Assembly (NCBI GenBank): GCA_003484955.1 | Contig: DMZH01000001.1 | Coordinates: forward strand, 23,848-87,847 | Length of the DNA: 64,000 nt | Source of the DNA: Candidatus Woesebacteria bacterium | Lineage (GTDB): Bacteria; Patescibacteriota; Microgenomatia; UBA8517 | Direction of reading: 5' to 3' | In this document: piece after piece, positions 2,358-62,556 of the stretch | How the letters are laid out: each line of letters starts with the position of its first letter | Position numbering within the stretch: position 1 is the stretch's first letter | The notes under the pieces: model-generated | What the model was told of the DNA's origin: nothing | Database searches by the model: none | Seen by the model: only the letters and a program-made list of their open reading frames with translations | Made by a program: the position numbers and the translations under genes

Positions 2358-4518
2358 TTGAATACAATTTTGAAACAGAAAGTCGTGACAAAAGATATGA
2401 AACCTGAGACTCAGCTCCTTGGTTTAAGTTTACCCGATCGGGATGGAGTCCGTCATAGCAACCGCCGTTTTCGGGGTTATAAAGCGGCAACTGTAAACTG
2501 TTGTTACCCAAAAACCAACTGAAGCAGATATCTATTAATATTTTATATTTTTTATTACCCGTAATTTCATATGCGGTTACGAGAGCGAGGATCATTGAAG
2601 CGGGATCTTCGGGTTGTTGATCAAAATAACTTCTTTCGCCACCCACTTTATACCACTCAGAGTGACCGATTGGCATATACCTATTTGAAGAGAAAGTTTT
2701 TTCTATCAGAAACGTTAGGGCTTCTGAGCCTTTATCCAAATAATGCTTGTTGCCTACGGCTTGCCCGGCTATAAAAAGCGCCTCAGGCACTATGGCGTTA
2801 TTGTACCCAAGGTAGTTATCAAACCAATGCCATGATTTATCTGAATTATTATCAAATTCAGTTACAAGAAAATTAGCATTCTTTTGAATGGAAGCCGTTA
2901 ATTCTTTTGAGTATTCCGGACATGCGCTAATCGCGTTCACAAACGATTTAATAATTAAAGCAGAGGAACGGATATGGAGAAGCCGCTTGGCATATGGTAG
3001 AGCTTTAATAAATATACTTTTTGCCGTTTTTTTCAAATTTGCCGGCATGTTTTTATTATTCAATACTTCACTGAGTGCCCACATAGCACGTGCGGTTGCA
3101 TCTTCCAGGTCCTCATTGAGATTTTGTATTGCTGCCATTTTATTATGATGATCGACATAGTTAATAAATGTTCCGTCCGCCTGTTGGCACTTTTTAATAA
3201 AATGTAAATAAATGGAAGCTAATTTGTTATTGTAGGGAGAAGCGGTAAGGCGGCTGCATATAACAAGAGCCCTGGCATTATCGTCAAGTGTGTAACCAAA
3301 CTTTTTATCGGGTAATTCCAGTTTTGCAAATTGAAAAAGTCCGTATTTATCGGTCATTTTTGCCAGATGGCTAAGGTTTACTGGCGGCAAGATATATTGT
3401 TTAAGAAGTCTTGAATATTTGAGCGCAACACTGCTCCAGAGCATCGGGCGGGTTTGTTCAAATGCAGTCCTATGCATTTTCATTAAATCCTCTTTACTAT
3501 CGAGTAACTCTATAAGTGCTTTACTAAAAGCTTTTGGTTTCATAATAGGTACCAACCGCCCCGTTTCATTGGTAATTATTTCTTTTGATTGTGCAAACTC
3601 GGTACTTATTACTGCGCGTCCGGAACCTAGCGCATATGAAAGTGTTCCGCTTACTGCTTGGTTAGGATTAATCGATGTTGAGATATAAATATCTGTAGCA
3701 TTAAGAAACTCCATTAAGTCGGGTAGCGACAAGTATTGATCATAGAATTTTACAAAATTATCTAAGTGTAATTTTGTTACAAGCTTGGAAAGTTCATTCC
3801 TATAACTTTCACCCTCACTTCTTCGTACAACAGGGTGTGTTTCGCCCAAAATCAGGTAAAGTAACGATGGGTGGCGTTTAATTATTTTTGGAAGTGCTTT
3901 TATTACGTATTCGATTCCTTTGCCACGGCTTAAAAGACCGAAGGTCGTTAGTATCGTCGTTTTTTGCAATTTTAATTTACGTTTAGCAGCGGTTGTATCG
4001 GTAAAAGTCGTTGGGTGGATGCCATGAGGAATCACATGCACTTTGTTAACTGATTGAGGATAGACCTTTTCCAGTATATGTTTTGAACTTTCAGTCAAAA
4101 CAACGATGATATTTGCGCGTTCAATAATCCTTGTAGTTACATCTTTCATTTTTGGCGAAGGTTTAGGTAGTACTGTGTGAAGAGTTGCCACAATTGGCTT
4201 CCTACAGGTCTCCATAAATAAAAGTATGTTTTCTCCATCAAGGCCACCATAAATCCCGTACTCGTGTTGAATGATCACTCCCGTGATAAGGGGATTGTTG
4301 TTGTATTCCGTGGCAAGATCTATATAGGCATTCTTGTCACTTTGGTCGATTTTCCAGACAACTTCAGGGGGGTAAACATACGTGTCCAAAGGAGTAAGGT
4401 TCATGGCTGCGACTTTGCACGAAACGGCTTTCCCCAGGTACTTCTGACTTGAGGCTAGTAGATCTTGATTGAACGTAGCTATACCGCACTCACGGGGAGG
4501 ATATGTTCCCATGAACAC
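2323..4518 (-). CDS. GT4-family glycosyltransferase fused to a C-terminal (alpha/alpha)6-barrel glycoside-hydrolase-like domain
   Basis: The N-terminal ~380 aa begin MGTYPPRECGIATF and end in a GT4 EX7E-like C-terminal half (Glycos_transf_1). The C-terminal ~350 aa are rich in W/Y/G/D, reading WHWFDNYLGYNNAIVPEALF...YNPENGGCYDG. This is typical of six-hairpin glycosidases, but the exact hydrolase family is undetermined. Confidence 0.7.
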   Translation of the reverse strand: MFMGTYPPRECGIATFNQDLLASSQKYLGKAVSCKVAAMNLTPLDTYVYPPEVVWKIDQSDKNAYIDLATEYNNNPLITGVIIQHEYGIYGGLDGENILLFMETCRKPIVATLHTVLPKPSPKMKDVTTRIIERANIIVVLTESSKHILEKVYPQSVNKVHVIPHGIHPTTFTDTTAAKRKLKLQKTTILTTFGLLSRGKGIEYVIKALPKIIKRHPSLLYLILGETHPVVRRSEGESYRNELSKLVTKLHLDNFVKFYDQYLSLPDLMEFLNATDIYISTSINPNQAVSGTLSYALGSGRAVISTEFAQSKEIITNETGRLVPIMKPKAFSKALIELLDSKEDLMKMHRTAFEQTRPMLWSSVALKYSRLLKQYILPPVNLSHLAKMTDKYGLFQFAKLELPDKKFGYTLDDNARALVICSRLTASPYNNKLASIYLHFIKKCQQADGTFINYVDHHNKMAAIQNLNEDLEDATARAMWALSEVLNNKNMPANLKKTAKSIFIKALPYAKRLLHIRSSALIIKSFVNAISACPEYSKELTASIQKNANFLVTEFDNNSDKSWHWFDNYLGYNNAIVPEALFIAGQAVGNKHYLDKGSEALTFLIEKTFSSNRYMPIGHSEWYKVGGERSYFDQQPEDPASMILALVTAYEITGNKKYKILIDICFSWFLGNNSLQLPLYNPENGGCYDGLHPDRVNLNQGAESQVSYLLSRLSVSKLYSNENSSNKKYIS

Positions 4519-4756
4519 AATAGTGGGTTTATTCTTGATTATTCATCATTATACCCCCAATATAGGATTTCACCTAAATTATAGGACGTATATTTTTTAC
4601 CCAACAAGAAATAGTGTCTCATTTAGTCCTTCGGTAAACCCAGGATTTCGGCTTTCAGCCTCAACCTCAAGATGGTACACTTATAAGGACTATAAGAGTT
4701 TGGACCCGTATGCTCAGCAAAAGTTGGAGGTTTACAAGATAGCTAATCTTAAAATA

Positions 4757-5227
4757 ATGGCAGTAAATCTTAATAACTATTATGAAATAAAAGATACTTT
4801 AGATAAAAATGGTATAGACTCTATTTTATACGGTTCCCTTGGTGCTTCAGTGTATATTGGTAATTTCAGAGAGTTTGATGATATTGACCTTCTTGTTGAT
4901 AAAGATCTTGTAGAAAGCCGGTGGCCAGAGTTAAAAGAAATAATGACAAAAGAAGGCTTCTCAGTTTTAGATGAGAAAGAACATGAATTTATTAATTCTA
5001 AAGGGGTAAAAATTGCTTTTGCAGGAAATAATGTTTTGGAAAGAGACAGGATATGCACTTTAGATACGGGTGTGGTTGAAATTGAGAAAAACGGCAAAAA
5101 AATTAGAACAATAACCAAGGATGCATTTATAAATGCCTACCTTTTTAGTTCTACAGATGGCTATAGAAAAGAAAAAAGGGGAAGAAGTGATTTAGATATT
5201 GTAGATAGTCTAAGAAAACTACAATAA
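4757..5227 (+). CDS. Minimal nucleotidyltransferase-fold protein (Pol-beta/MNT-like)
   Basis: GSLGASVYIGNFREFDDIDLLV fits the NTase hG[GS] ... DhD motif. The track ORF 4469 is trimmed to the internal ATG at 4757. The upstream 97 codons overlap the promoter region of a divergent gene and look noncoding. Confidence 0.5.
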   Translation: MAVNLNNYYEIKDTLDKNGIDSILYGSLGASVYIGNFREFDDIDLLVDKDLVESRWPELKEIMTKEGFSVLDEKEHEFINSKGVKIAFAGNNVLERDRICTLDTGVVEIEKNGKKIRTITKDAFINAYLFSSTDGYRKEKRGRSDLDIVDSLRKLQ

Positions 5228-5297
5228 CAAAAGAGTTCTAATATGGTCCCTGATGGTTATGGGATCGAAAGGTTCTAGACCGTGATGCACAGCCAAA

Positions 5298-6029
5298 ATG
5301 AAAATAAATAAAAATTATCTGTTAATCGGTGTGTTAGCGATTGTGGTGATAGGATCTGTGTTGCTAATTTCCCGTCAGGGAAAAAGTAAAAGTGAAGTAA
5401 AAAACAAGGTCCGACTTGTTAAATCTTTAGAATTTTCCGTCCTTGCTAAGGATGAAAAAAACTTTCTTTTAGACGTTCATGTGCCCGAACAAACCCATAT
5501 TCCGGGAACTGACGCTTTTATACCCTACAATGAAATTTCCCTCAATTTGGATAAGTTTCCAGAGGATAAATCTACTCCCATCCTTGTCTACTGCAGAACG
5601 GGAACAATGAGTGAGGAAGCATCAAAGGAGATTGCCGGTCTTGGTTACACAAACGTATATGATTTGGATGGCGGGATTAATATTTACAAAGAATCGAATG
5701 TGGGAGTTTTTATAACTCCACAAAATCGGAATTTGGGTCGAGTAATTTATGGAGATATTCCCACAACAACTTTTACTTTAACCAACTTCGGTCCCCTCCC
5801 CTTAAAAATAACACGGGTTTCAACTTCATGCGGATGCACAAAAGCAGAAGTCGATAAAAAAGAACTTGGTGCCTATGAAGCGACCGAAATTAGAGTTTCA
5901 TTCAATCCTGCCGTTCACGGAGACGCAACTGATGTTGGAGGCATAACAAGAACAATCTATATACAAACCGACAACCCCAATATTCCTCGACTTACCAACA
6001 CGATTACGGCTGATGTAATTAAAAATTAA
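5298..6029 (+). CDS. Membrane-anchored rhodanese domain fused to a DUF1573-like Cys-motif domain
   Basis: An N-terminal TM anchor is present. The rhodanese active-site loop reads VYCRTG. The C-terminal domain has TSCGCT...FNPAVHG, paralogous to ORF 21715..22239. Confidence 0.65.
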   Translation: MKINKNYLLIGVLAIVVIGSVLLISRQGKSKSEVKNKVRLVKSLEFSVLAKDEKNFLLDVHVPEQTHIPGTDAFIPYNEISLNLDKFPEDKSTPILVYCRTGTMSEEASKEIAGLGYTNVYDLDGGINIYKESNVGVFITPQNRNLGRVIYGDIPTTTFTLTNFGPLPLKITRVSTSCGCTKAEVDKKELGAYEATEIRVSFNPAVHGDATDVGGITRTIYIQTDNPNIPRLTNTITADVIKN

Positions 6030-51229: not shown

Positions 51230-52312
51230 TCAGTCTTCCTTTTCTTCTCCAATTTCTTTTGGAAGTTTTTTCCCTGAAGCTACCATATCGCGGATTTTTT
51301 TGTCGATTTCGTCTGCAATCTTGGGGTTATCTCTCAAATAAAGTTTGGCGGCTTCCTTACCTTGAGCTATGGGTTTGTCTTCATAATTAAAGAATGAACC
51401 GCTTTTACCGATAAGCCCAAGTTCAAGTCCCACATCCAAAATTCCTCCGCCTCTACTGATTCCTTCAGACTCCATTATGTCAAACTCGGCAACGCGAAGC
51501 GGGGGTGCGACTTTGTTTTTGACAATGCGGGCACGATGTCTTGAACCGATCACTTTCTCCCCGTCTTTAAGGACCTCTATTCTTCTAAGATCGATTCTCA
51601 CGGATGAGTAGAATTTAAGAGCTAATCCTCCCGGAGTTGTTTCCGGATTACCAAACATAACTCCGATTTTTTGTCTAAGCTGGTTGGTAAATATTAGAAC
51701 GGTTTTACTTTTGGAAATTGCTCCGGTTAGTTTTCTTAACGCTTGAGACATAAGGCGCGCCTGCATTCCCATGACAGCATCTCCCATTTCCCCTTCAAGT
51801 TCCGCCCTCGGTACAAGGGCTGCAACAGAATCAACTACCACAACATCAATTGCACCGGATCTGATTAAAGTTTCCGTAATTTCCAAAGCCTGCTCACCCG
51901 TGTCGGGTTGGGACATAAGAAGGTTGTCAAGGTCGACTCCAAGGATCTCGGCACGGACAGGGTCAAGCGCGTGCTCGGCATCTACAAACGCACACTGTCC
52001 ACCGTGCTTCTGAGCCTCAGCAACAACAGAAAGGGCTAGAGTGGTCTTCCCTGAGGCTTCAGGACCGTAGATTTCGACTATACGGCCTCTGGGAAGCCCT
52101 CCAACACCCAGTGCCAAATCGACCGCCAATGAACCCGTGGAAATCACATCAATCTTGTATTTTTCGCCGGAATCCCCACCCAAACGCATAATGGATCCTT
52201 TTCCATATTGTTTTTCAATCTGGTCCATCGCAAGCCTTATCGCTTGAAGTTTTGCGGAGCTTCCTTCCTGCTTAACCGGAGCTTCAATTTCAGGTTTTTT
52301 TGATTTTGGCAT
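51230..52312 (-). CDS. recA: Recombinase RecA
   Basis: GPEASGKTT is Walker [15 protein letters not shown] and loops L1/L2 are conserved. Confidence 0.95.
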
Positions 52313-52369
52313 TGTCTCTATCTTTTACAACGGCGGTTAAAATAATTCAATGGGGAAAATTGATTCTAG

Positions 52370-52440
52370 TCGGGGTGCTCGGAATTGGACCGAGTTCAGA
52401 CGCACCCCATGCGCCTATTCTACCGGTGAACTACACCCCG
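52370..52440 (-). tRNA. tRNA-Pro (anticodon GGG) with a noncanonical T-loop
   Basis: Minus-strand fold: acceptor CGGGGTG/CACCCCG; T8 A9; D-arm GTTC-ACCGGTA-GAAT with A14, G18, G19, A21; anticodon stem GGCGC/GCGTC; loop aTGGGGt with anticodon GGG and G37; T-arm CTCGG-TCCAATT-CCGAG. Position 55 is C rather than T. No CCA is encoded. Confidence 0.55.
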
Positions 52441-52560
52441 TAATTCAAAGCCATTTTACCACGAGGTATTAAAAATACCGAGAGGCAAGCCGTGTTTAGT
52501 ATAGAAGCTTATCTTTTTTGGGGATCATCCTTCGACAGCGCTCAGAATTTCAACTGTTTT

Positions 52561-52971
52561 TTAACGCTTCGGACTTTGCTTGGCGCGTCTGGCTTTTCCG
52601 CCCTTACCAACCATCCTTCTTTGTCTCTCCCTGGAGTCTCTGGTTAAAAGATTCAATTTCTTCAAAATAATTTTATTTTTATCAGGCGCAACTTTTACAA
52701 GACCTCTGGAAATTCCCAAAGTAAGGGCATTCAGCTGTCCTTCTTTTCCGCCCCCTGCAACCTTTGCCGAAAAATAATATTTGTCGGATGTCTCTGTAGC
52801 TCCAAATGGTTTGGCAATTACTTTTGCATTGAGCTCTCCCGGAAAATACTTTGAGGCGGGCATTCCATTGACTGTGTTTTCCCCTTTTCCACGATAGAGC
52901 CTGATGCGGGCGGAGCTTTCTTTCCTTCTCCCGATTGCAAATATATAATCAATTTTTTTAATTTTTGTCAT
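52561..52971 (-). CDS. rpsI: 30S ribosomal protein S9
   Basis: A conserved GGG..GQ core and a basic C-terminus ending SPKR are present. Confidence 0.9.
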   Translation of the reverse strand: MTKIKKIDYIFAIGRRKESSARIRLYRGKGENTVNGMPASKYFPGELNAKVIAKPFGATETSDKYYFSAKVAGGGKEGQLNALTLGISRGLVKVAPDKNKIILKKLNLLTRDSRERQRRMVGKGGKARRAKQSPKR

Positions 52972-52973
52972 TT

Positions 52974-53414
52974 TTACGACAAAGTCGAAACTTTGTTTTC
53001 TTTCTTAAATTCTGCCTCATATGGATTTTTATCTCCGACTACTACTTTAAGTCTCAACATCCTGTCACTTTTTAAACGATTATCGGGAATCATGCCGGAA
53101 ACCGCGTGCTCGATTATTCTTTCGGGATGTGATCTCATTACCATGTCATAAGATTTTTCTTTAAATCCTGAAGGATAACCCGAGTGGGTCCTGTAAACTT
53201 TCTGTGATGCTTTCCTGCCGGAAACCATTATTTTTTCTGCATTAATTACAACAACATAATCCCCCGTATCCATATGGCGGCTAAATGTTGTTTTCCCCTT
53301 ACCGGTCAAAAATTCTGCAACTTTGGTTGCAAGTCTTCCCAGGATTTCGTCTTTGGCATCAACTAAGTGCCATTTTCTTTTAATATCTTTTGGTGTTGGT
53401 TGAAATGTTTTCAT
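52974..53414 (-). CDS. rplM: 50S ribosomal protein L13
   Basis: KRKWHLVDAKDEILGRLAT is the N-terminal signature of L13. Confidence 0.9.
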   Translation of the reverse strand: MKTFQPTPKDIKRKWHLVDAKDEILGRLATKVAEFLTGKGKTTFSRHMDTGDYVVVINAEKIMVSGRKASQKVYRTHSGYPSGFKEKSYDMVMRSHPERIIEHAVSGMIPDNRLKSDRMLRLKVVVGDKNPYEAEFKKENKVSTLS

Positions 53415-53872
53415 TTTTCTCCTTTTTTGATAACTTTTTTAATTTCTTTCTTTTCTTCTTTTTTTATTGTTTTTTTAGACTTTTTTTCCTCTTTTACTTT
53501 TGTGTCATACTCAATTTTCTCCGTCCACTCCAATCTTACCATTTGTGCGTTGTCACCAACTCTCCTTGGAAGAGAAATAGACCTTACAAAACCTGAGCTT
53601 TTCTCGGAAAAAGCTTTGGCGATGTTTTTAAAAAGAACTTCAGTTGCTTCTCTTTTGTTGTCCAACTTTCCCAAAACCTTTCTCCTCGATGCAAGACCTC
53701 CCTTTTTAGAAAGGGTTACCATTTTTTCCACACTCCCTATAACCGCCTTTGCTTTTGCGCGAGTGGTTACTATTTTCCCATTCATGATCAATGCCTTCGC
53801 TAAAGAGGCAAACAGGGCTTCTCTAGCCGGACGGGATCGGGAAAGTTTTCTTCCGAACACTTTCTTGTTCAT
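53411..53872 (-). CDS. rplQ: 50S ribosomal protein L17 with a Lys/Glu-rich C-terminal extension
   Basis: GRKLSRSRPAREAL...TTRAKAKA is the L17 core. It is followed by KEEKKSKKTIKKEEKK. Confidence 0.85.
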   Translation of the reverse strand: MNKKVFGRKLSRSRPAREALFASLAKALIMNGKIVTTRAKAKAVIGSVEKMVTLSKKGGLASRRKVLGKLDNKREATEVLFKNIAKAFSEKSSGFVRSISLPRRVGDNAQMVRLEWTEKIEYDTKVKEEKKSKKTIKKEEKKEIKKVIKKGEK

Positions 53873-53877
53873 AGGTT

Positions 53878-54795
53878 TTACTTAATTGCGAGGAACTCGA
53901 CACCTTTTGTTCCGAGTGCTGCAGCTACAATTTTGAGGGATTTTTCACCGAGGTTTCTGACTTTTACCAAATCTTCTTTCTTTGCATGGGCAAGCTGTTC
54001 AACTGTTTCAAAACCTGCCTTAATCAAAGCATTGGCTACTCTTGTTGGAAGTCCAATCTCTTCAACTGAAAGTTTACCGGTGAGTCCCAACTCATCCTTG
54101 GGGGCTTCTTCTTGTTTTTCTACTACTTTAGGGTTAACGATTTGGGCAAAGTAACTCATTAATGTTTTTGCCGAATCCGTAATTGCACTGCTGGCTTCAA
54201 TTGTCCCATCGGTCCAAATTTCCAAAATAAGCTTGTCGTAATTTGTCAGTCTGCCGACGCGGGTTTCTTCAATTTTATAACTTACTCTTTTTACGGGTGA
54301 AAAAGATGCGTCAACCGGAATAAGGCCGATTGTGTCAGATGGCCTGTCCTCTGCAGGCGAAAAACCAGTACCGCTTTCAATTGTTATTTCGGCCGAAAGT
54401 TTTGATCCTTTATTGAGAGTGCCTAAAACAAGATCGGGGTTTGCAACTTCGATTCCCCCGCCAACTTTAATTTCCTTGGCTGTGAATTCACCGGCTTTGT
54501 TCACTTCCAAAGTTGCCTTAACTGATTTATCCGTACTTCCCGAGAATCTGACTTTTTTGAGGTTAAGGATGAATTCGACCGTATCTTCCTTCATTCCCGA
54601 CAAAGTAGAAAATTGATGCTTAACGCCGGCAATTTTAACGGAGGTAACAGCCATACCCTGAAGAGATACCAAAAGAACCCTTCTTAATGCATTACCGATA
54701 GTAAGCCCATATCCCTGTTCGAGGGGGGTGATGGCAAATCTGCCGTAATTGGTTTCTTTCTTTTCTTCCTTTATTTCAAAAGTTGGCTCGTTCAT
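53878..54795 (-). CDS. rpoA: DNA-directed RNA polymerase subunit alpha
   Basis: The N-terminal domain has GYGLTIGNALRRVLL. The C-terminal domain has the LGLPTRVANAL helix-hairpin-helix. Confidence 0.9.
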   Translation of the reverse strand: MNEPTFEIKEEKKETNYGRFAITPLEQGYGLTIGNALRRVLLVSLQGMAVTSVKIAGVKHQFSTLSGMKEDTVEFILNLKKVRFSGSTDKSVKATLEVNKAGEFTAKEIKVGGGIEVANPDLVLGTLNKGSKLSAEITIESGTGFSPAEDRPSDTIGLIPVDASFSPVKRVSYKIEETRVGRLTNYDKLILEIWTDGTIEASSAITDSAKTLMSYFAQIVNPKVVEKQEEAPKDELGLTGKLSVEEIGLPTRVANALIKAGFETVEQLAHAKKEDLVKVRNLGEKSLKIVAAALGTKGVEFLAIK

Positions 54796-54896
54796 ATTTA
54801 TTGTTATAACGAATGTAGGTATTATATCCTACCCTCAAGCTGATTTCAACACGATCTTCCCGGACTGGGAATGGAATACTAACCCATCTCCCTGTA

Positions 54897-55496
54897 TTAC
54901 CTCGAGTAGAACTCAACAATATCCTGCTCGCTTACTGACTCAGTTATATCCTCACGCTTCGGGTACGATGAAACTTTGCCGACAAGTGCTTTTCTTTCAA
55001 GCCAGGATGGGATTTTTAGGTCTTTTTGATCAAAAGCATTTTTAACCTCAGGTATATTTGAAGCTTTGGCATCTAGTGTAACTACATCTCCAATTTTCAA
55101 ACTAAATGAGGGTATGTTTACTTTCTGGCCATTCACTAAAATGTGCCTATGAGAAACGATTTGTCTGGCTGCCGGCCTGCTAGGAGCAAAGCCCAGTCTA
55201 AAAACGGCATTATCAAGACGTCTTTCAAGGCTAACCAAGAGTGCCTCCCCGGTATTTCCTCTGGATTTGGAGGCTTCATCAACGTATCTCCTAAACTGCT
55301 TCTCCAAGATGCCATAAATTCTCTTAACTTTTTGTTTCTCACGAAGCTGTTTACCATACTGAGAAGAGCCCCCCGTCCCCTTTGGTCCATGGACTCCAGG
55401 GGGAACATTAAGTCTGGTTAACTTTGCGCCTGCACTGAAAATGTCAAATGCTTCGCGCCTGCTCAATCTGTCTTTTGGTCCGACGTATTTTGCCAT
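54897..55496 (-). CDS. rpsD: 30S ribosomal protein S4
   Basis: MAKYVGPKDRLSRREA opens the protein. An S4 domain (RLDN) is present. Confidence 0.9.
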   Translation of the reverse strand: MAKYVGPKDRLSRREAFDIFSAGAKLTRLNVPPGVHGPKGTGGSSQYGKQLREKQKVKRIYGILEKQFRRYVDEASKSRGNTGEALLVSLERRLDNAVFRLGFAPSRPAARQIVSHRHILVNGQKVNIPSFSLKIGDVVTLDAKASNIPEVKNAFDQKDLKIPSWLERKALVGKVSSYPKREDITESVSEQDIVEFYSR

Positions 55497-55509
55497 ATAT
55501 TTTTAAATT

Positions 55510-55893
55510 TTAGACTCTGCGTTTCTTCTTCGGTCTTGGTCCGTTATGTGGAACCGGTGTAATATCTGCAATCAAGGAAATTTTAACTCCCGTAGCCTTT
55601 ATGGCTCTTAAAGCTGCATCGCGTCCCGCACCGGGACCTTTAACATAAATTTCAACTTCATTAACCCCATTCACATCTTTAACCTTATTTATCACTTTTT
55701 CAACCGCACTTGTTGCGGCAAATGGTGTTGCGCGCCTTGTACCTTTGAACCCGGATGCGCCTGAGGATCCCCAAGCTAAAGTTTCTCCTTGGGTGTTGGT
55801 AACGGTTACCAAGGTGTTGTTAAAGGAAGCGGAAATGTAAACCCTACCCAAACCGACTTCCTTATTGATTGTTTTTTTAGCTTTAGTCGCCAT
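55510..55893 (-). CDS. rpsK: 30S ribosomal protein S11
   Basis: GRVYISASFNNT...GFKGTRRATPFAA is the S11 core. Confidence 0.9.
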   Translation of the reverse strand: MATKAKKTINKEVGLGRVYISASFNNTLVTVTNTQGETLAWGSSGASGFKGTRRATPFAATSAVEKVINKVKDVNGVNEVEIYVKGPGAGRDAALRAIKATGVKISLIADITPVPHNGPRPKKKRRV

Positions 55894-55897
55894 ATTG

Positions 55898-56308
55898 TTA
55901 TTTTGCTTTTTCGTCTTTGTTCGCAGTCATCTTGGACAGCATTTCTTTCTTAAAGGCTCCCACTGTCTTTCTTTTTCCGCGTTTTGTACGGGCGTTTGTT
56001 CTTGTTCTTTGTCCTCTTGCCGGAAGACCTCTCACATGTCTCATACCACGGTACGAACCGATTATTTGCAGTCTCTGAATGTTTTCCCTAACTACTCTGG
56101 CTATATCACCTTCTATTTGATATTTTTCAAGTTCTGTGTTTATTTTTGAAATTTCTTCACTGGACAAATCCGATACTCTTTTTTTGATATCAATGCCACA
56201 ATCTTTTAAAACTTTTTCGGACAAAGTCCAGCCTAACCCTCTAATTTTGGTGAGAGCATAATTTGCTTTCCAATTATCTTGTAAATCAATGCCGGCAATT
56301 CTTGTCAT
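55898..56308 (-). CDS. rpsM: 30S ribosomal protein S13
   Basis: MTRIAGIDL...IRGLG...IGSYRGMRH is conserved. Confidence 0.9.
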   Translation of the reverse strand: MTRIAGIDLQDNWKANYALTKIRGLGWTLSEKVLKDCGIDIKKRVSDLSSEEISKINTELEKYQIEGDIARVVRENIQRLQIIGSYRGMRHVRGLPARGQRTRTNARTKRGKRKTVGAFKKEMLSKMTANKDEKAK

Positions 56309-56346
56309 GTTTTAATAAATAGGAAATTAATCCTGGCTTGTTTTCG

Positions 56347-56460
56347 TCATCCCTGACGCTGCTTATGCCTGGGATTTTTGCAAATGACGTATAAAACGCC
56401 TTTGCGCCTAACAATCTTACAGTCCTTACATCTGGCTTTTATCGAACTTAAAACTTTCAT
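56347..56460 (-). CDS. rpmJ: 50S ribosomal protein L36 (unannotated, 37 aa)
   Basis: I translated it by hand: [37 protein letters not shown]. It carries the C-x2-C-x12-C-x4-H zinc ribbon and lies between infA and rpsM, as expected. Confidence 0.8.
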
Positions 56461-56470
56461 ATATTTTATA

Positions 56471-56686
56471 TCAATATTTGTACACTATTCGGCCTCTACC
56501 TTCGTCGTAAGGTGTCATTTCGACTTTCACCCTGTCTCCCGGAAAAACTCTTGTGTAATTCCTGCGCATTCTCCCGGTCAATGTTGCCAAAATGACCTTG
56601 CCATCCACAAGCTCAACTCTGAACATTGTGTTGGGAAGGGCGGCAGAAACTGTACCATCTACCTCAACTACATTCTTGGTTTTCAT
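56471..56686 (-). CDS. infA: Translation initiation factor IF-1
   Basis: It has an S1-like OB fold with [18 protein letters not shown]...VKVEMTPYD. Confidence 0.9.
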
Positions 56687-57432
56687 CTCGTTAAAACTTG
56701 TGCTCCTTTTTCCGTTACGGCAACTGTATCCTCGAAAAGTCCTGATATTTTACCATCACGCATAGCAATTGTCCATCCGTCTTCCAAGATCTCAACTTTG
56801 TCGGATCCCGCTGCGTACATTACTTCAACTGCCAGTACCATTCCCTTTTTGATTACGGGACTATCCTCAACCCTTCCGGGCACAAAACAGGGAATTTGCG
56901 GATCTTCGTGGAGTTTACGGCCCACCCCATGCCCAACAAGCGCTTTTATGGTTGAATATCCCGCACCCTCAACAACTTGCTGTATTGCATTCGAAATATC
57001 ATAGATATAGTTGCCTTCTTTAACTTCTTTCAGGGCTTTTTGCAAAGCCAGTTCTCCCGTACCTAAAAATTTTTTAACTTCCGGTGCGGGGCTTACCCCA
57101 ACAGTAATAGATGTATCTGTATGAAAACCCTTGTAATAAATTCCAACATCAATACTGACTATGTCACCGTTTTTAAAAATAACATCGGATGTTGGAATTC
57201 CGTGCACTAGACCTTCGTTTATATTTATACATGTCGCCCAGTAATAATTGGGTTCTTTATCAAAAGATGGCTCGACTCCTTCCTCTTTTATTAACTTCAT
57301 CGCCAAGTTTTCGATATCGAGAGCCGTCACGCCCGGCTTAACCGCAGCGGCTAATGTTTTCTTAATTCTACCAAGCCTGATACCCCCCTCACTCATAATT
57401 TGAATTTCTCCCGGAGATTTAATTTTGATCAT
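56683..57432 (-). CDS. map: Methionine aminopeptidase type I
   Basis: Metal ligands sit in DIVSIDVG...HGVG...VLAVEVM, the pita-bread fold. Confidence 0.9.
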   Translation of the reverse strand: MIKIKSPGEIQIMSEGGIRLGRIKKTLAAAVKPGVTALDIENLAMKLIKEEGVEPSFDKEPNYYWATCININEGLVHGIPTSDVIFKNGDIVSIDVGIYYKGFHTDTSITVGVSPAPEVKKFLGTGELALQKALKEVKEGNYIYDISNAIQQVVEGAGYSTIKALVGHGVGRKLHEDPQIPCFVPGRVEDSPVIKKGMVLAVEVMYAAGSDKVEILEDGWTIAMRDGKISGLFEDTVAVTEKGAQVLTR

Positions 57433-58075
57433 CTTCTTTCGCCTTCCGAACTATTTCTTCCAGGTCTTTCGCAATTTCCTCAATGGGACGATCTCCGTTC
57501 ACTTTTGTAAGATTCCCTTTGACGTCTGCATAATCAATTAACTCTTTTGTATTTTGAAGATAATACTCGAATCTTGTTTTGATTGCTTCAGGTTTATCGT
57601 CATCCCGCTGGACAAGTGTGCCACTGCATTTGTCGCAAACTCCGAAGCTTTTTGGAGGTTTTGACTCTGTATTAAAAATTTCACCGCAGCCGCTGCACAT
57701 CCACCTTGCTGAAATTCTTTTAATTGCCACGTCCATTGGAACTTCTAAAGAAATTACAACGTCAATGTCATCCCCTTTGCTTTTCAGAAAATTGTCTAAA
57801 GCTTCATATTGAGATATAAATCTCGGAAAACCTTCAAAGAGAATATCCCTAAGGTCTGGCTTTTTGTTTTCCAAAAAATCCAACACGTGCATCGTTATTT
57901 CTTCCGGAGGGATTAATTTTCCCGAGTTGATAATTTCTTTAATTCTCGGGTCAGTTTCTGCCAGCTTTCTGGCAATGTCTCCCGTCGAGAGATGAAAAAG
58001 ATTAAACTTTTTAGATAAGATTTCGGCCTGAGTACCTTTTCCTGAAGCGGGAGAACCAAGTAAAACGATATTCAT
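57419..58075 (-). CDS. adk: Adenylate kinase with a zinc-binding lid
   Basis: GSPASGKGTQAE is the P-loop. The lid carries CSGCGE...CDKCSG. Confidence 0.9.
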   Translation of the reverse strand: MNIVLLGSPASGKGTQAEILSKKFNLFHLSTGDIARKLAETDPRIKEIINSGKLIPPEEITMHVLDFLENKKPDLRDILFEGFPRFISQYEALDNFLKSKGDDIDVVISLEVPMDVAIKRISARWMCSGCGEIFNTESKPPKSFGVCDKCSGTLVQRDDDKPEAIKTRFEYYLQNTKELIDYADVKGNLTKVNGDRPIEEIAKDLEEIVRKAKEDDQN

Positions 58076-58076
58076 G

Positions 58077-59357
58077 TTAAATAAACCCCTCGTACCTTTC
58101 CATTACCAGTTCACCTTCTATTTCACGGACAATCTCCAGAACAACAGAGACAACGATCAAAATACTTGTCCCTCCTATTGCCATGTTTGAAGCACCGACA
58201 AAGTTCTGGAAAAGGGAGGGGAGCACCGCAATAAGCCCCAAGAATGCTCCTCCCACAACGGTAATTCTTGAAAGAATGTGAGATAGATATTTTTCAGTTT
58301 CTTTCCCCGGCCTTATTCCCGGAATAAAACCGCCGCCTTTTTGTAAATCTTCAGAAATTTTTTCGGGGTTAAAAACTACCGCCGTATAAAAATATGTAAA
58401 TCCGAAAACCAAGAAGAAATAAACGACATTATAAAGAACAGATTGAGGACTAAATGCCGTACTCATTGTTCTGGCAATACCGGCAATTTGTATGTTGGAA
58501 GCATTCGACAAAAACTGTCCTATCATAGAAGGTATAAGCACTAAAGATACGGCAAAAATAATAGGGATAACTCCCGCCTGATTAAGTCTTATGGGAAGGT
58601 AGGAAGATGCCGCGAGTCCGGATTCCGTTCTTCTTTTTGCATAATGTATCGGAATTTGACGGGTTGCTTCGCCAACAAAGACAACAAGGCCGACGATTAG
58701 GACCAGTACCGCAAAAAATATAATCATTTTGAAAATATCCTGTGACTGAAAGATACTTGCCGATTGGCTCAGAATCACGGGGAGTCTGGCAATAATACCG
58801 ACAAAGATAAGTATAGAGACTCCGTTTTTGAAGCCGTACTCGGTAATCAATTCCCCGAGCCAAACAGCAAAAACAGTACCTGCCGTCATTGTGATAACCA
58901 AGGAAAAAAGATCAATTGGACTTAATCCTGTAATAATATTTTGCCCCTTAAGAAGGGCATACATACCAAATGCTTGAACAGCTGCCAGGGGTATTGTTAC
59001 AAGACGGGTGTATTGGTTTATTTTTTCCTGGCCATATTCGCCCTCTTTTTGAAGTTCAGCAATTGACGGAACAACATAGCCCAAAAGCTGAAAAATAATC
59101 GAAGCATTAATGTAGGGGTTCAAGCCCAGTGCCAAAATTGAAAAGTTGGCCAAAGTTCCACCCGAAAAAACATCCAGAAGCGACAAAAGCGGGCTTCCCA
59201 AGAAAAGTGCCGAAAGAGTATCTCTATCAATTCCGGCAGCGGGAATGTGGGCCGCGAGTCTAAAAACGACAAGTATTATCCCCGTTATAATTAATTTTTT
59301 CCTGATAGAGCGGGTTTTGGCGGCTTTTACAAAAAATTGAGCAATCGACTTAAACAT
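58077..59357 (-). CDS. secY: Protein translocase subunit SecY
   Basis: It has 10 TM helices with the conserved plug and hinge regions, in the expected operon position. Confidence 0.9.
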   Translation of the reverse strand: MFKSIAQFFVKAAKTRSIRKKLIITGIILVVFRLAAHIPAAGIDRDTLSALFLGSPLLSLLDVFSGGTLANFSILALGLNPYINASIIFQLLGYVVPSIAELQKEGEYGQEKINQYTRLVTIPLAAVQAFGMYALLKGQNIITGLSPIDLFSLVITMTAGTVFAVWLGELITEYGFKNGVSILIFVGIIARLPVILSQSASIFQSQDIFKMIIFFAVLVLIVGLVVFVGEATRQIPIHYAKRRTESGLAASSYLPIRLNQAGVIPIIFAVSLVLIPSMIGQFLSNASNIQIAGIARTMSTAFSPQSVLYNVVYFFLVFGFTYFYTAVVFNPEKISEDLQKGGGFIPGIRPGKETEKYLSHILSRITVVGGAFLGLIAVLPSLFQNFVGASNMAIGGTSILIVVSVVLEIVREIEGELVMERYEGFI

Positions 59358-59404
59358 ACGTATTCACGATTATATCCCAAAAGTGATCCTAAAAACAGCT
59401 GTGT

Positions 59405-60070
59405 TTACTGGCAGTTGGAGGACTTAACAAAACCCGCGGCTTTGGCTTCATTCTCTGTGCAGAACCAATCTTCCCCCCGATATCTTTCAACTTTTGTTTG
59501 ATCGTAATCGCGACACCCGGGCAACATATATATGTATTTATTCAAATCATGGGAAATCTGACCTTTTATACCGCAGTTCTTCTTTATCGGAACCGTTGGA
59601 GAACATTCTTCCGAAAAAATTCCTAATTTATTGTCTCTTGCATAATAGCTGGTTTCCTTAATGATCTCTGAAGTCTCGGTTTTATTGCCATCATAATAAG
59701 CAAAACCGTTCTTGGACATATATTCATTAACAAATTCTCCGTCAACGTATACAAACGCCTGAATCCGCTTATAAATATCTGTCTTAAGACCTTTTAGAAT
59801 TACTTTTTTACCAAAGACTTTGCTGGAAAGAGCATCTTTCGCTTCCTCACCAAAACAATACTGAAGTTCCGGTGCGTCTATTCCAAATAAACGTATCGAT
59901 TGTCCGTTTTCTATTCTGAATGTATCACCATCTATTACTTCGGTTACTATTTCCCCAGGATCTATTACCCTTTTGGTAACAGTGGCTGACCCGGCAATTA
60001 TTCCAATCGCGCCAATTGCAACCAGAGCTTTTTTGAAAGAAAATTTCTTTTTCTTGGAAGGCTTAGGCAT
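59405..60070 (-). CDS. Membrane-anchored staphylococcal-type (thermonuclease-like) nuclease with a Cys-containing C-terminal extension
   Basis: A TM anchor is followed by VIDGDTFRIENGQSIRLFGIDAPE...DIYKRIQAFVYVDG, the SNase core. The start is trimmed to the ATG at 60070. Confidence 0.7.
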   Translation of the reverse strand: MPKPSKKKKFSFKKALVAIGAIGIIAGSATVTKRVIDPGEIVTEVIDGDTFRIENGQSIRLFGIDAPELQYCFGEEAKDALSSKVFGKKVILKGLKTDIYKRIQAFVYVDGEFVNEYMSKNGFAYYDGNKTETSEIIKETSYYARDNKLGIFSEECSPTVPIKKNCGIKGQISHDLNKYIYMLPGCRDYDQTKVERYRGEDWFCTENEAKAAGFVKSSNCQ

Positions 60071-60077
60071 ATATTTA

Positions 60078-60338
60078 TTAATATACTTCGTTATGCGTTC
60101 CAAACTTTAAACAGTATATATAATTGTCTTCAATTTTAATTTTTATTCGATAACTTTCATTTACTGAAACAGACCAGTATTCCATGCCGGACAACTTATG
60201 AAGTCTTAATGATCTACTGTTAACATTCGTATTTAGGAGAAGTAGAGTTTTTTCAACTTGGCCATGCAATTTACGATTATGATTAATCTGTTTCTCTAAT
60301 TCCTTTTTAAAGGATTTTGAGAGAACGACTTCGTACAT
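60078..60338 (-). CDS. RelE/ParE-family type II toxin
   Basis: YEVVLSKSFKKELEK...LRLHKLSGMEYWSVSV...YRIKIKIEDNYIYCLKFGTHNE matches the RelE/ParE/YafQ pattern. Confidence 0.7.
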   Translation of the reverse strand: MYEVVLSKSFKKELEKQINHNRKLHGQVEKTLLLLNTNVNSRSLRLHKLSGMEYWSVSVNESYRIKIKIEDNYIYCLKFGTHNEVY

Positions 60339-60347
60339 ACGAAATCA

Positions 60348-60584
60348 TTATCTAATAGATTTCATATACTTTTCAACATCGCCCTTGTTTTTCAAAACAG
60401 TTGCCTTTCCTGTCTTTAAATCTTTCTTTGCTTCTAAATAGAGCTGATCGAGATTGGTCTTTTCTATAGAATTTCTGAGAGAATCACGAACCAGATCACT
60501 AAACGATGAATAGAAACCTGCCTTAACCAAATCTTCACCCGCTTCTTTTAATTTGTCTGGCAATGAGATATTTATTGTACTCAT
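60348..60584 (-). CDS. Ribbon-helix-helix antitoxin (ParD/CopG-like)
   Basis: MSTINISLPDKLKE is an N-terminal beta-strand RHH signature. It lies immediately upstream of the toxin. The start is trimmed to the ATG at 60584. Confidence 0.6.
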   Translation of the reverse strand: MSTINISLPDKLKEAGEDLVKAGFYSSFSDLVRDSLRNSIEKTNLDQLYLEAKKDLKTGKATVLKNKGDVEKYMKSIR

Positions 60585-60724
60585 ACAATATATGTACATT
60601 TTTCATACATATATGTCAAGTGCCACTTGGCATACCAGGGGCGAGTTTTGGTGAGGTTAATGGAAAATGGCATTTCAAACCCCCCAAACGTCAAATCCCT
60701 TCTTAATTTGATATAATATGGGCT

Positions 60725-61210
60725 GTGGACAAGAAAATCAGAGATATATTAGCGAAAGGACTTGGTGAGGGTTATGTTGGCAGAAGTGTCAAAGGACTAG
60801 TAGATCGTGCTGGACACACTTTGGAAACAAGTGATTACCAGGGACCGGAAGGAAAATATCACGATGAATGGGCAGCGCACCAAAATGGCGGTGGGCAGGA
60901 ACTTGTTGAAACTCCGGATGGCAAAAAAGCCACTAGGGTTTACGCAGGTGGCTCTCTACATGAAGAAGAATTAATAAAAATAGGTTTAACTGGAAAAGAT
61001 GTCATTAGAAAGCTGGTTTTCTTTGTTAACCAATTGGGAGAAAAAACCAGGTTAGACACAGATGCCGAATCGACAGAGGGCAACTGGAGTTATTCATACA
61101 AAATTCTCAAATCGGTTCAGGAAATTCCGGTTGATGTCGCAGAAGAAGAAATAAAATACAAAGGAAATTTAGTTTTTATTCACTTCCACATAAATTCCCC
61201 TGTAAGGTAA
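60725..61210 (+). CDS. Hypothetical protein, the only plus-strand gene inside the ribosomal cluster
   Basis: It has a GTG start 12 nt after a TATAAT box, and a 161-aa acidic product. No family was recognised. Confidence 0.45.
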   Translation: MDKKIRDILAKGLGEGYVGRSVKGLVDRAGHTLETSDYQGPEGKYHDEWAAHQNGGGQELVETPDGKKATRVYAGGSLHEEELIKIGLTGKDVIRKLVFFVNQLGEKTRLDTDAESTEGNWSYSYKILKSVQEIPVDVAEEEIKYKGNLVFIHFHINSPVR

Positions 61211-61214
61211 TCTT

Positions 61215-61673
61215 TTATTTTGAAGTTTTAACCTCTTTTTCGGCAGGCTTCTCGGAGGAGGCGGTAACAGTAATAACCTTTCCTGAAGTAGGAACTGAGA
61301 ACTTAAATTTCTTTGGGTTTTTACCAACACTTAAAATTTTTACTCCGTTAATTTTTGCCAACTTTCCGTTTACCACACCCAATTTGACAAGTTTCTCAAG
61401 TGTAATTTCTGTTCCATCAGTAAGCTTTTCGAGCCTTTTATAGTTAACTATTTCCGGTCGTGCTTTTGCATGGAATTTACCTTTACCGCGCATTAAGGGA
61501 AGTCTTTTAAGTAAAGACTTTCTCATCTTCATTCCCTCAAAAAGTACTCCGATCGTACCTCTACTTTTTTGTCCTTTTTGACCACGCCCAGTGGTATGGG
61601 ATCCTTTTCCGCTTCCCATTCCTCTACCGACTCTTTTCTTAGACTTTTGTATTACTTTTGGTAAATTTGCCAT
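61215..61673 (-). CDS. rplO: 50S ribosomal protein L15
   Basis: KRVGRGMGSGKGSHTTGRGQKGQKSR is the L15 signature. Confidence 0.9.
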   Translation of the reverse strand: MANLPKVIQKSKKRVGRGMGSGKGSHTTGRGQKGQKSRGTIGVLFEGMKMRKSLLKRLPLMRGKGKFHAKARPEIVNYKRLEKLTDGTEITLEKLVKLGVVNGKLAKINGVKILSVGKNPKKFKFSVPTSGKVITVTASSEKPAEKEVKTSK

Positions 61674-61697
61674 ATTATTATTCTACTTCGCTCAGAT

Positions 61698-62195
61698 TTA
61701 TACTTTTCTCTTAATGTCCACGATTCCTGAAATTGTTTCCAGCGCTTTCAGCGTCGCATAAACATTTGAAATCTTATTCTTCGTTCCTAAAATCTTTCCG
61801 ACGGCATCCCTGATTCCGGCCGCTTCAAGAACAACTCTCATTGGGCCTCCTGCAATAATACCGGATCCTGGGGGAGCCGGCTTGAGAAGAACCTTGGCTG
61901 CTGAGAACTTTTCACTAACGGAATAAGGAACGGTTGTTCCGACAAGTGGAACCAGAATCAGCTTTCTCTTTGCTGCCTCTATTGCTTTTCTAATGGCGTT
62001 CCTGACATCTGTTGCTTTGGCAAGTCCAACTCCAACCTTACCTTTTCGGTCTCCAACAACAACCAGAGCGGAAAACCTTATTTGGTTTCCACCTTTGGTC
62101 TTTTTGGAAATCCTGTTGATTTGAACCACCGTTTCCTCAAACTCTTTAGGTGCTCCTTCGTAATTACTCCTTCTTCCTCTATTAAAGTTTCCCAT
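61698..62195 (-). CDS. rpsE: 30S ribosomal protein S5
   Basis: VVQINRISKKTKGGNQIRFSALVVVGD covers the dsRBD and S5 domain 2. The start is trimmed to the ATG at 62195, which follows GGAGG. Confidence 0.9.
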   Translation of the reverse strand: MGNFNRGRRSNYEGAPKEFEETVVQINRISKKTKGGNQIRFSALVVVGDRKGKVGVGLAKATDVRNAIRKAIEAAKRKLILVPLVGTTVPYSVSEKFSAAKVLLKPAPPGSGIIAGGPMRVVLEAAGIRDAVGKILGTKNKISNVYATLKALETISGIVDIKRKV

Positions 62196-62196
62196 T

Positions 62197-62556
62197 TTAA
62201 AATTCCAGTCCTCCTTTTCTGGCTCCTTCCGCCAACGCCTTAACTCTACCATGGAATCTAAATCCGTTTCTGTCAAAAACCACACTTTTAATCTTTTTGG
62301 CGATTGCCTTTTTTGCCAAATCTTCCCCGACGTTTCCGGCGATTTGAATCTTGGTCTCCTTAGTTTTTCCTTTGACGGTCAAGTCAGATGAAGAAACTAA
62401 AGTGATACTCTTCTCATCATTAATAATTTGTCCATAAATATGCGTATTGGAACGGAAAACCGAAAATCTCGGCCTTTTAGACGTCCCTGTAATTCTTGCA
62501 CGGACTCTTGCTTTCCTCTGAACGTATCTTTTTGTTTTTAATTGTAAATTACTCAT
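62197..62556 (-). CDS. rplR: 50S ribosomal protein L18
   Basis: PRFSVFRSNTHIYGQIIND and the C-terminal GRVKALAEGAR are conserved. Confidence 0.9.
   Translation of the reverse strand: MSNLQLKTKRYVQRKARVRARITGTSKRPRFSVFRSNTHIYGQIINDEKSITLVSSSDLTVKGKTKETKIQIAGNVGEDLAKKAIAKKIKSVVFDRNGFRFHGRVKALAEGARKGGLEF

Follow-up and report, generated by a model that had tools for sequence, protein, structure and literature searches.

In the 64,000-nucleotide stretch of DNA analysed here (hereafter the window), which comes from a Candidatus Woesebacteria organism (Microgenomates/OP11, Patescibacteria) of the Rifle aquifer, the ribosomal gene rplO and the secY gene are separated by 1,857 nt, counted from the rplO stop codon to the secY ATG. 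This interval contains four genuine genes: a conserved gene for a 161-amino-acid (161-aa) protein (60725-61210, plus strand), the antitoxin (60348-60584, minus) and toxin (60078-60338, minus) genes of a toxin-antitoxin (TA) pair, and a gene for a staphylococcal-type nuclease (59405-60070, minus). Our results point to a changeable rplO-secY slot that is specific to one clade and enabled by a promoter-like element in front of secY, with the TA pair, the nuclease and the 161-aa protein gene as its cargo, a reading to which we assign a probability of about 0.72. The split junction is not a recent insertion that became fixed; one Woesebacteria clade has long kept a changeable slot at this position. 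According to the mechanism that we propose, the promoter-like element (TATAAT preceded by CTGTnTTTAGGATCA) would have arisen before secY in the ancestor of the clade, or together with the first insertion, and such a dedicated promoter would uncouple secY-adk-map-infA from the upstream ribosomal genes. Because the rplO-secY boundary would then no longer need to be transcribed through, it could tolerate insertions and deletions and become a slot whose content differs from species to species. The slot of the window would thus hold three independent transcription units, namely the 161-aa gene, which is transcribed towards rplO and recurs at the junction without being tied to it, the TA cassette, presumably inherited vertically with its own promoter and phased repeats, and the older nuclease gene, which the TA promoter would now drive as well.

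The secY neighbourhoods of 80 species-level Woesebacteria relatives were fetched through the best SecY hits (the public genomes nearest to the window carry the labels Woesebacteria or Microgenomates; individual loci are designated L017, L018 and so on), and rpsE, rplO, the four genes, secY and adk were located in each of them by tblastn. Orthologues of rplO (40-94% identity) were found upstream of secY in related loci. At those loci that lack the conserved box described below, the approximate rplO-secY gap was no larger than 151 nt in 50 of the 52 measurable cases, the exceptions being L047 (221 nt) and L089 (2,087 nt), so that a tight junction is indeed the background state, as a first-pass annotation of the window had assumed. 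At the box-bearing loci, the gaps measured 73, 111, 134, 142, 320, 534, 997, 1007, 1087, 1757, 1768, 1857 (the window), 2374, 3498, 3664, 3897, 4080, 4258, 4635 and 4806 nt and more than 5.8 kb, while in L018, L026 and L042 rplO does not lie within 6 kb of secY and both appear to be fully disconnected. Except for that of L045 (320 nt), these variable gaps belong to the loci closest to the window, with SecY proteins roughly 76-86% identical, and the open reading frames (ORFs) that fill them are largely unrelated between species, with about 20 different states among 25 loci. The same annotation had described the operon as normally inviolate, which does not hold for this lineage, where junction lengths between 73 nt and over 6 kb are found and the cargo is unrelated. 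It had also considered that related genomes might carry the same genes at the same site, which would make them ancestral rather than inserted; this turned out to be half true, since the genes are old residents in a sub-clade, whereas the split junction is derived within Woesebacteria.

The downstream edge of the junction is formed by secY (58077-59357, minus; Pfam SecY, E 6e-106), which is preceded in the window by the secY-specific box CTGTTTTTAGGATCACTTTTGGGATATAAT (59369-59398, minus), conserved in the window and 24 related species. When the 65 nt upstream of secY were aligned for these 25 loci, the box took the form CTGTnTTTAGGATCA-N3-TTTGGGATATAAT; its TATAAT (59374-59369 in the window, where 11 nt separate it from the secY ATG) does not vary in any of the 25 and always lies 8-12 nt ahead of this start codon, the intervening spacer being unconserved. 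Its distribution coincides exactly with that of opened or variable junctions, and loci with rplO directly next to secY lack it. Each box-bearing locus has a single copy, which invariably precedes secY, and the 64-kb window as a whole contains only this one; the box is kept where the upstream neighbour is an opposite-strand or unrelated gene, and the loci that bear it constitute, except for L045, one clade on a SecY neighbour-joining tree. From this pattern of sequence conservation we infer that the box is a dedicated secY promoter giving rise to a leaderless or near-leaderless mRNA. The first-pass annotation had reasoned that secY and the genes after it must either be read through the inserted genes or make use of a TTGACA promoter located between them; the TATAAT box, which had been missed, provides a better answer.

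It can also be the case that the box is not a promoter, acting instead through protein binding or at the RNA level, and that secY is transcribed by read-through from rplO or from the TA promoter. The lack of a canonical -35 element, the failure of a promoter scanner to call the box, the absence of any predicted intrinsic terminator between rplO and secY on the minus strand, and the orientation of the TA promoter, which points towards secY, would all be in agreement with this possibility. Against it speak the invariant hexamer, which is exactly TATAAT and lies at a fixed distance from the ATG across a spacer that is not conserved, and the retention of the box beside neighbours that are unrelated or on the opposite strand; moreover, read-through from rplO would run antisense through the convergent 161-aa gene, and an Rfam scan of 52200-62000 rendered only a chance-level match, with no family fitting the region. 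We consider this alternative unlikely, although not far-fetched, and retain the reading of the box as a secY promoter.

Several points weigh against that reading, or against parts of the broader picture in which it stands. A -35 hexamer cannot be recognised in the box at 16-18 nt, where the sequence is TGTTTT, further matches to the box in the window do not exceed chance, and a consensus promoter scanner called neither the box nor the TA promoter; the overall promoter count of this scanner was below the shuffled expectation, so that cross-species conservation was relied on instead. The box could have some other regulatory function specific to secY, and its origin could be later than the first insertion. 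Locus L045 has the box and yet falls outside the box clade, which could reflect a transfer of the box or a poorly resolved tree; its SecY is 72% identical to that of the window, in L045 (5938-6003) the box accompanies a 320-nt gap with an ORF of 83 aa, and the locus groups with the box-less L044. In addition, the gap sizes are approximate, as they were taken from the ends of tblastn alignments, and the small values are upper bounds. With regard to the cargo, both the toxin and the antitoxin of the window are below the curated sequence cutoffs, and the nucleotide-scavenging role that we suggest for the nuclease is drawn from its architecture and from the biology of the lineage.

The box was also considered as a genome-wide promoter consensus or as a repeated recombination site, and both options were dropped in view of the chance level of its matches in the window and the single copy per locus. 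In a crude survey of TATAAT across 40 genes that are preceded in the window by a gap of 40 nt or more, a perfect copy of this hexamer within 25 nt of the start was found for three, namely the 161-aa gene, secY and rpoA. The last of these is preceded by GTAGGATATAAT, with the TATAAT at 54821-54826 (minus), 25 nt before the ATG, a sequence that resembles the GGGATATAAT found before secY and may represent another internal promoter of the ribosomal super-operon.

A sister strain of the window, L017, illustrates how the slot can be emptied. Its SecY is about 99.5% identical to that of the window (two residues differ), and the flanking DNA is 94-95% identical, positions 64000-61223 and 59452-54897 of the window corresponding in blastn to positions 3126-5875 and 5906-10462 of L017, respectively. 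The 1,770 nt in between (59453-61222), the right end of which lies inside the nuclease gene, are missing and replaced by about 30 nt of unrelated sequence. Since L017 keeps the last 14 codons of the nuclease gene and its stop codon ('...EAKAASFVKSSNCQ*'), this junction is a deletion scar and not an empty ancestral site. The box is retained after the deletion. The four-gene insert had been described as fixed, which cannot be maintained when a strain with about 95% DNA identity has deleted it. Three tight junctions, those of L022, L023 and L030, are nested among filled-gap loci within the box clade of the SecY tree, so that they are probably secondary losses too; no nuclease remnants are recognisable in them. 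The sequence that fills the deletion junction of L017 contains the motif CTGAGCGnnGTCGAAGG (5885-5901), which recurs in the rpsI-recA spacer of the window (52529-52545, minus) as well as in L023 (4022-4036), L043 (646-660 and 9075-9089), L088, L121 and L132, and which may be a small dispersed repeat.

The gene calls of the first-pass annotation were correct, the four ORFs between rplO and secY being found at the positions it had given, and their arrangement is not peculiar to a single assembly. Exact-protein look-ups revealed more than 20 Rifle aquifer contigs, assembled independently, that carry identical proteins in this order; one of them measures 750 kb, and they came from different samples, assemblers and projects, which indicates that the segment is real and no assembly artefact. 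The idea of a chimera produced by the assembly or binning of a metagenome-assembled genome, for which the metagenomic origin of the window and a local dip in G+C content might be invoked, has practically no credit in view of those contigs and of the orthologous arrangements found in other species.

The four genes had been regarded as one small addiction or defence islet, made up of the 161-aa gene, a ribbon-helix-helix (RHH) antitoxin, a RelE toxin and the nuclease, which had been inserted as a unit and fixed in an inviolate operon. Some observations are consistent with this: the genes are contiguous, most Woesebacteria have a tight junction, many Rifle assemblies show an identical arrangement, and the G+C content of the TA pair (0.30 and 0.34) is low in comparison with the window mean (0.402, with a standard deviation of 0.035), within the lowest 2% of 400-nt windows, a level to which six further stretches of the window also fall. 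The G+C content is normal, however, in the nuclease (0.387) and in the 161-aa gene (0.407), so that low values are confined to the TA pair. Furthermore, the genes have different histories, as shown by their separate distributions: the nuclease is found at the site without the TA pair in at least six species, the TA pair and the nuclease without the 161-aa gene in two species, and the 161-aa gene without the TA pair in several, and, as mentioned above, the whole segment is deleted in the sister strain. No integrase or transposase gene is present in the segment of the window or among the 25 commonest Pfam families of 96 junction ORFs, only short, chance-level direct or inverted repeats flank the 1.8 kb, and the nearest tRNA gene that could serve as an anchor (tRNA-Pro, 52369-52440) is 7 kb away. 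A classical mobile element is accordingly not supported, there being no recombinase gene and no flanking repeats. No paralogues of the four genes are found elsewhere in the 64-kb window. A defence role is not borne out either, since a search against PADLOC-DB 2.0 produced only generic domain matches, of the nuclease to SNc+LTD (E 3.2e-8) and of the toxin to CARF_RelE (E 0.008), with no matches for the antitoxin and the 161-aa protein and no known defence system in the segment. Insertion of a single islet is therefore given very little weight as compared to a slot that gains and loses genes separately.

The 161-aa gene starts with GTG and converges on rplO. It had been labelled an orphan, a label that has to be dropped, since more than 200 homologues were found: there are 212 of them of 160-162 aa and 54-91% identity, an exhaustive search yielded 169 clusters at 50% identity, and the family alignment contains 24 invariant columns, including a YHDEW...GGGQE stretch. 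With a ratio of nonsynonymous to synonymous substitution rates (dN/dS) of about 0.05, the gene is under purifying selection. An AlphaFold2 model of the protein (predicted local distance difference test score, pLDDT, 90) is composed of mixed helix and sheet and has no significant match in the PDB by Foldseek, and no match to Pfam, NCBIfam or PADLOC was found. The domain DUF5680 (PF18931) was considered and rejected, as the protein of the window has no match to it at E≤0.1; two distant members of the family reach 19-23 bits against a cutoff of 25. The product is thus a conserved cytoplasmic protein without assigned function. The TATAAT that the first-pass annotation had ascribed to this gene is present as a candidate -10 element (60712-60717, plus), a perfect match 7 nt before the GTG, with no -35 match upstream of it.

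The 161-aa gene is found at the junction in about nine loci and in either orientation, tail-to-tail with rplO in L097, L099/L100, L103, L108, L110 and L117, and in the same direction as secY in L019 and L138. Of some 25 further loci with sufficient flanking sequence, most carry it elsewhere, and the hypothesis that it is tied to rplO was abandoned for this reason. The stop codons of the 161-aa gene and rplO are 4 nt apart in the window, and the distance is 2-4 nt across the window (61210-61215) and L099/L100 (5486-5489 in L099). With stop codons that converge in this way and no terminator predicted, the transcripts of both genes must overlap or collide. In L101 (346-5486; JBFOMY010000011.1), a homologue of the 161-aa gene lies beside genes for a large serine recombinase, a Phage_rep_O-like protein and a SHOCT-domain protein, which may be part of an integrated element.

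The toxin and antitoxin calls of the first-pass annotation, which were to be checked by profile searches, gave a mixed result, since neither protein reaches a sequence cutoff, while the fold of the toxin and the nature of the weak matches of the antitoxin support them. The antitoxin (78 aa, RHH of the ParD/CopG type; its start, ATG at 60584, is backed by homologues) matches only RHH and ParD profiles, all of them below cutoff: the ParD-family model TIGR02606 (E 6e-7, 29.4 bits against 46.2), RHH_8 (E 3.4e-4, 21.1 against 25.4) and RHH_1 (E 0.014, 15.8 against 20.5). Its best PDB profile matches are ParD/CopG antidotes and the RHH domain of NikR, with E values of 0.04-0.6. The toxin (86 aa), which one source names ACD_13C00010G0055, is likewise below threshold for ParE_toxin (20.8 bits against 23), YafQ_toxin (17.1 against 30) and RelE_StbE (TIGR02385; 23 against 27.9). 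Its AlphaFold2 model (pLDDT 90) shows the strand-helix-helix-four-strand topology of RelE and has 29 Foldseek matches in the PDB at E≤1e-3 (best E 4.7e-6), the top ones being Helicobacter pylori HP0894, YoeB, YafQ, RelE and RelK, with template modelling (TM) scores of 0.75-0.82, and ParE-type structures ranking lower. The toxin family is tiny, with 10 homologue clusters in the indexed database, four of which match YafQ_toxin (best E 3.5e-8) or ParE_toxin (E 7.8e-8). Since the toxin of the window itself is below the curated cutoffs, its membership in the RelE/YafQ/YoeB group rests on transitive homology and on its fold, which is that of mRNA endonucleases dependent on the ribosome. We also note that its C-terminus, ...FGTHNEVY, resembles the ...TGTHAALF of YafQ.

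Low dN/dS values, about 0.08 for the toxin and 0.03-0.05 for the antitoxin (range for the pair 0.03-0.09, measured against homologues with synonymous sites near saturation), indicate that purifying selection has kept both genes functional. Both are conserved together in five loci, one of them in an unrelated context, and the pair is located at the rplO-secY junction in three species, including the window. In the other two, the RHH, RelE and nuclease genes are found at the same site and with the same spacing, at synonymous distances (dS) of about 0.85-2.3; in one (L162/L163) the RHH gene directly follows rplO, and the other (L165/L166) has a gene for a GNAT acetyltransferase in place of the 161-aa gene. 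The remaining context is that of L164, in which the TA pair (70% identity) and its promoter appear alone, in non-ribosomal surroundings and without the nuclease. A GNAT gene lies directly upstream of the RHH and RelE genes in both L164 (4228-5261) and L165 (4101-5261), the two GNATs being not obviously alike.

An alignment of the window with L162, L165 and L164 delimited the TA promoter and a probable operator (60583-60619, minus). The TTGACA at 60619-60614, noticed in the first-pass annotation, is present and invariant in the four loci, and it is separated by a 17-nt spacer from TACATA (TATAAA in the relatives). The -10 element and the antitoxin ATG are overlapped by three TGTAY repeats with a period of 11 nt, whose first positions are 60609, 60598 and 60587. 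The stretch from TTGACA through the TGTAY repeats is conserved in all four loci, and the sequence upstream of TTGACA is unrelated in all of them, which places the left edge of the cassette at about 60620. The repeats are a candidate operator, to which the RHH antitoxin would probably bind to repress its own operon. The pair would seem to be an ordinary chromosomal module. As in type II TA systems such as DinJ-YafQ, RelBE, YefM-YoeB and ParDE, the antitoxin gene is small and upstream, its stop codon 9 nt before the toxin ATG; as in autorepressed type II modules, the promoter overlaps phased repeats, and the toxin model superposes on YafQ, YoeB, RelE and HP0894 at a TM score of about 0.8. In contrast to the known families, both proteins are too dissimilar for any curated cutoff, and a gene for an exported nuclease, as predicted, follows 7 nt downstream; unlike in ParDE, a ParD-like RHH antitoxin is paired with a toxin of the RNase-type rather than the ParE-type fold.

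The nuclease (221 aa; start at ATG 60070, backed by homologues) consists of an N-terminal signal or anchor, an SNase domain (PF00565; E 1.9e-15, 57.7 bits against a cutoff of 21) and a C-terminal, Cys-containing 'sunset' domain (NF051437; E 8.5e-10, 38.5 bits against 27). The latter match covers residues 179-228 of the 232-aa ORF, that is, the C-terminal 50 residues or so, and a literature search for 'sunset domain' returned no paper describing it. In an alignment with the thermonuclease of Staphylococcus aureus (E 3e-13), the DGDT, R, D-x-P-E and R positions are kept, which we take to be the equivalents of D21, R35, D40, E43 and R87 in nuclease A numbering. After a Lys-rich N-terminus comes a hydrophobic stretch of 17 residues, ALVAIGAIGIIAGSATV, with a Kyte-Doolittle mean of 1.68 over 19 residues, and the protein has six Cys residues; these features predict that it is exported or membrane-anchored. 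The call of a membrane-anchored SNase-like nuclease thus agrees with the SNase match above cutoff and with the hydrophobic N-terminal segment. The scores against the equivalog models NucI (34.9 against a cutoff of 250) and EcnA (31.1 against 180) are far too low, which makes the protein an SNase-family enzyme and no orthologue of either.

Orthologues of the nuclease (53-66% identity) are found at the junction in L018, L020, L026, L028, L031, L043, L097 and L165, and altogether the gene is at the rplO-secY junction in at least nine species spread across sub-clades of the SecY tree. The junction orthologues share the architecture, with the sunset domain detected in six of seven (not in L026). 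We infer that the nuclease is an older resident of the slot, of the Ca2+ type and, from its sequence, probably exported. It shares with the thermonuclease of S. aureus the SNase domain and the aligned Ca2+-ligand and catalytic positions, and differs from it by the additional sunset domain at its C-terminus. Patescibacteria are described as devoid of de novo nucleotide synthesis (PMC10633639). Most plausibly, the nuclease degrades extracellular nucleic acid, thereby aiding an organism unable to make nucleotides. Nucleotide salvage is a known use of membrane-associated nucleases, and the N-terminus of the window nuclease would provide the export or anchor signal seen in the salvage nucleases of reduced-genome bacteria.

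Because only 7 nt lie between the toxin stop codon and the nuclease ATG, the nuclease gene is probably co-transcribed from the TA promoter, and the question arises whether the RHH, RelE and nuclease genes form one functional system, for instance a nuclease effector under TA control that acts in defence or abortive infection. The short distance, with no separate nuclease promoter apparent, the conservation of the trio with the same spacing in three species and the weak PADLOC match of the nuclease to the SNc+LTD candidate would favour such a system. However, the signal or anchor and the six Cys residues predict an extracytoplasmic nuclease, away from intracellular phage DNA; nucleases of the same architecture are found at the junction without the TA pair in L018, L026, L028, L031, L043 and L097, and the TA pair is found without the nuclease in L164. 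This combined system is of low probability in our view, and a TA cassette placed upstream of an older nuclease gene remains the preferred reading.

With respect to the surroundings, the upstream edge of the junction is rplO (61215-61673, minus), the final gene of a ribosomal block that runs, on the minus strand, rplE, rpsN, rpsH, rplF, rplR, rpsE (61698-62285, minus) and rplO, and after the interposed segment the order continues with secY, adk, map, infA, rpmJ, rpsM, rpsK, rpsD and rpoA. No rpmD gene is present between rpsE and rplO in the window, as is usual for Patescibacteria. The tRNA-Pro (GGG) gene mentioned above (52369-52440, minus) lies between rpsI and recA and folds into a clean cloverleaf according to ARAGORN; it was not reported by the permissive Rfam scan of 52200-62000.

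The L15 protein encoded by rplO in the window is full length (152 aa; Pfam Ribosomal_L27A, 22.1 bits against a cutoff of 21.5), whereas the rplO ORF is only 72-94 aa long in at least 10 related Woesebacteria, including L021, L030, L041, L043, L079-L081 and L094, where it is located just upstream of secY, as well as L163 (3445-3720) and L165 (3765-4043). In these short variants, about 70 N-terminal residues are conserved, with 93% identity to the protein of the window for L163 and L165, and a short Lys-rich tail takes the place of the globular C-terminal domain; the loci are scattered over the SecY tree. The short form is known from secY-linked rplO ORFs, and a second rplO copy elsewhere in these genomes is possible. 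A literature search for short L15 in Patescibacteria found nothing relevant.

A Pfam census of 96 junction ORFs from 21 relatives rendered NUDIX (8), GNAT (5), SNase (5), TPR (4), alpha/beta-hydrolase (4), APH (3), Ser_hydrolase (3), Trp-repressor-like (3) and RrnaAD (2), among other families. The cargo of the junction in L018-L043 and L089 is dominated by small modifying enzymes, among them three APH-type phosphotransferases and two nucleotidyltransferases; RrnaAD corresponds to rRNA methylases of the Erm/KsgA type, and several of the cargo classes include antibiotic-modifying or ribosome-protecting enzymes. One could go further and suppose that the birth of the secY promoter produced a recombinase-free cargo bay, with a non-random content of small-molecule, nucleotide and ribosome modifiers, the churn of which has clipped rplO and given rise to viable ribosomes with a truncated L15. 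We regard this extension as distinctly improbable; if it were true, the cargo enzymes could protect or tune translation.

Insertions of small genes in the ribosomal operon cluster have been documented in Gammaproteobacteria and Bacilli, where synteny is often lost afterwards, which has been interpreted as relaxed selection (PMC8046335). Our case resembles those in that a few unrelated genes are inserted and the descendants then keep them, lose them or become fully disconnected, and it differs in that the classical spc unit itself is broken, at the boundary of rplO and secY, and this in Patescibacteria, with a conserved new element before secY and a turnover of content at the species level; a literature search for rplO-secY insertions in Patescibacteria found nothing relevant. 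As in genomic islands and integron-like hotspots, different accessory genes are gathered at one fixed site, but no integrase, transposase, recombination-site repeats or tRNA anchor were found here, and the cargo consists mostly of small metabolic or modifying enzymes.

Taken individually, the genes of the segment are ordinary, comprising a chromosomal TA pair, a nuclease predicted to be exported and a conserved hypothetical protein. What the junction offers is a clean and datable example, from Patescibacteria, of the breaking of one of the most conserved gene strings in bacteria, and a caution for procedures of marker-gene and synteny-based binning that assume rplO-secY contiguity. It also provides a concrete candidate promoter in a phylum whose promoters are essentially uncharacterised. 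If the box acts as proposed, the junction would have become, once the secY element was in place, a free slot in which gains, losses and full disconnection have taken place among close species.

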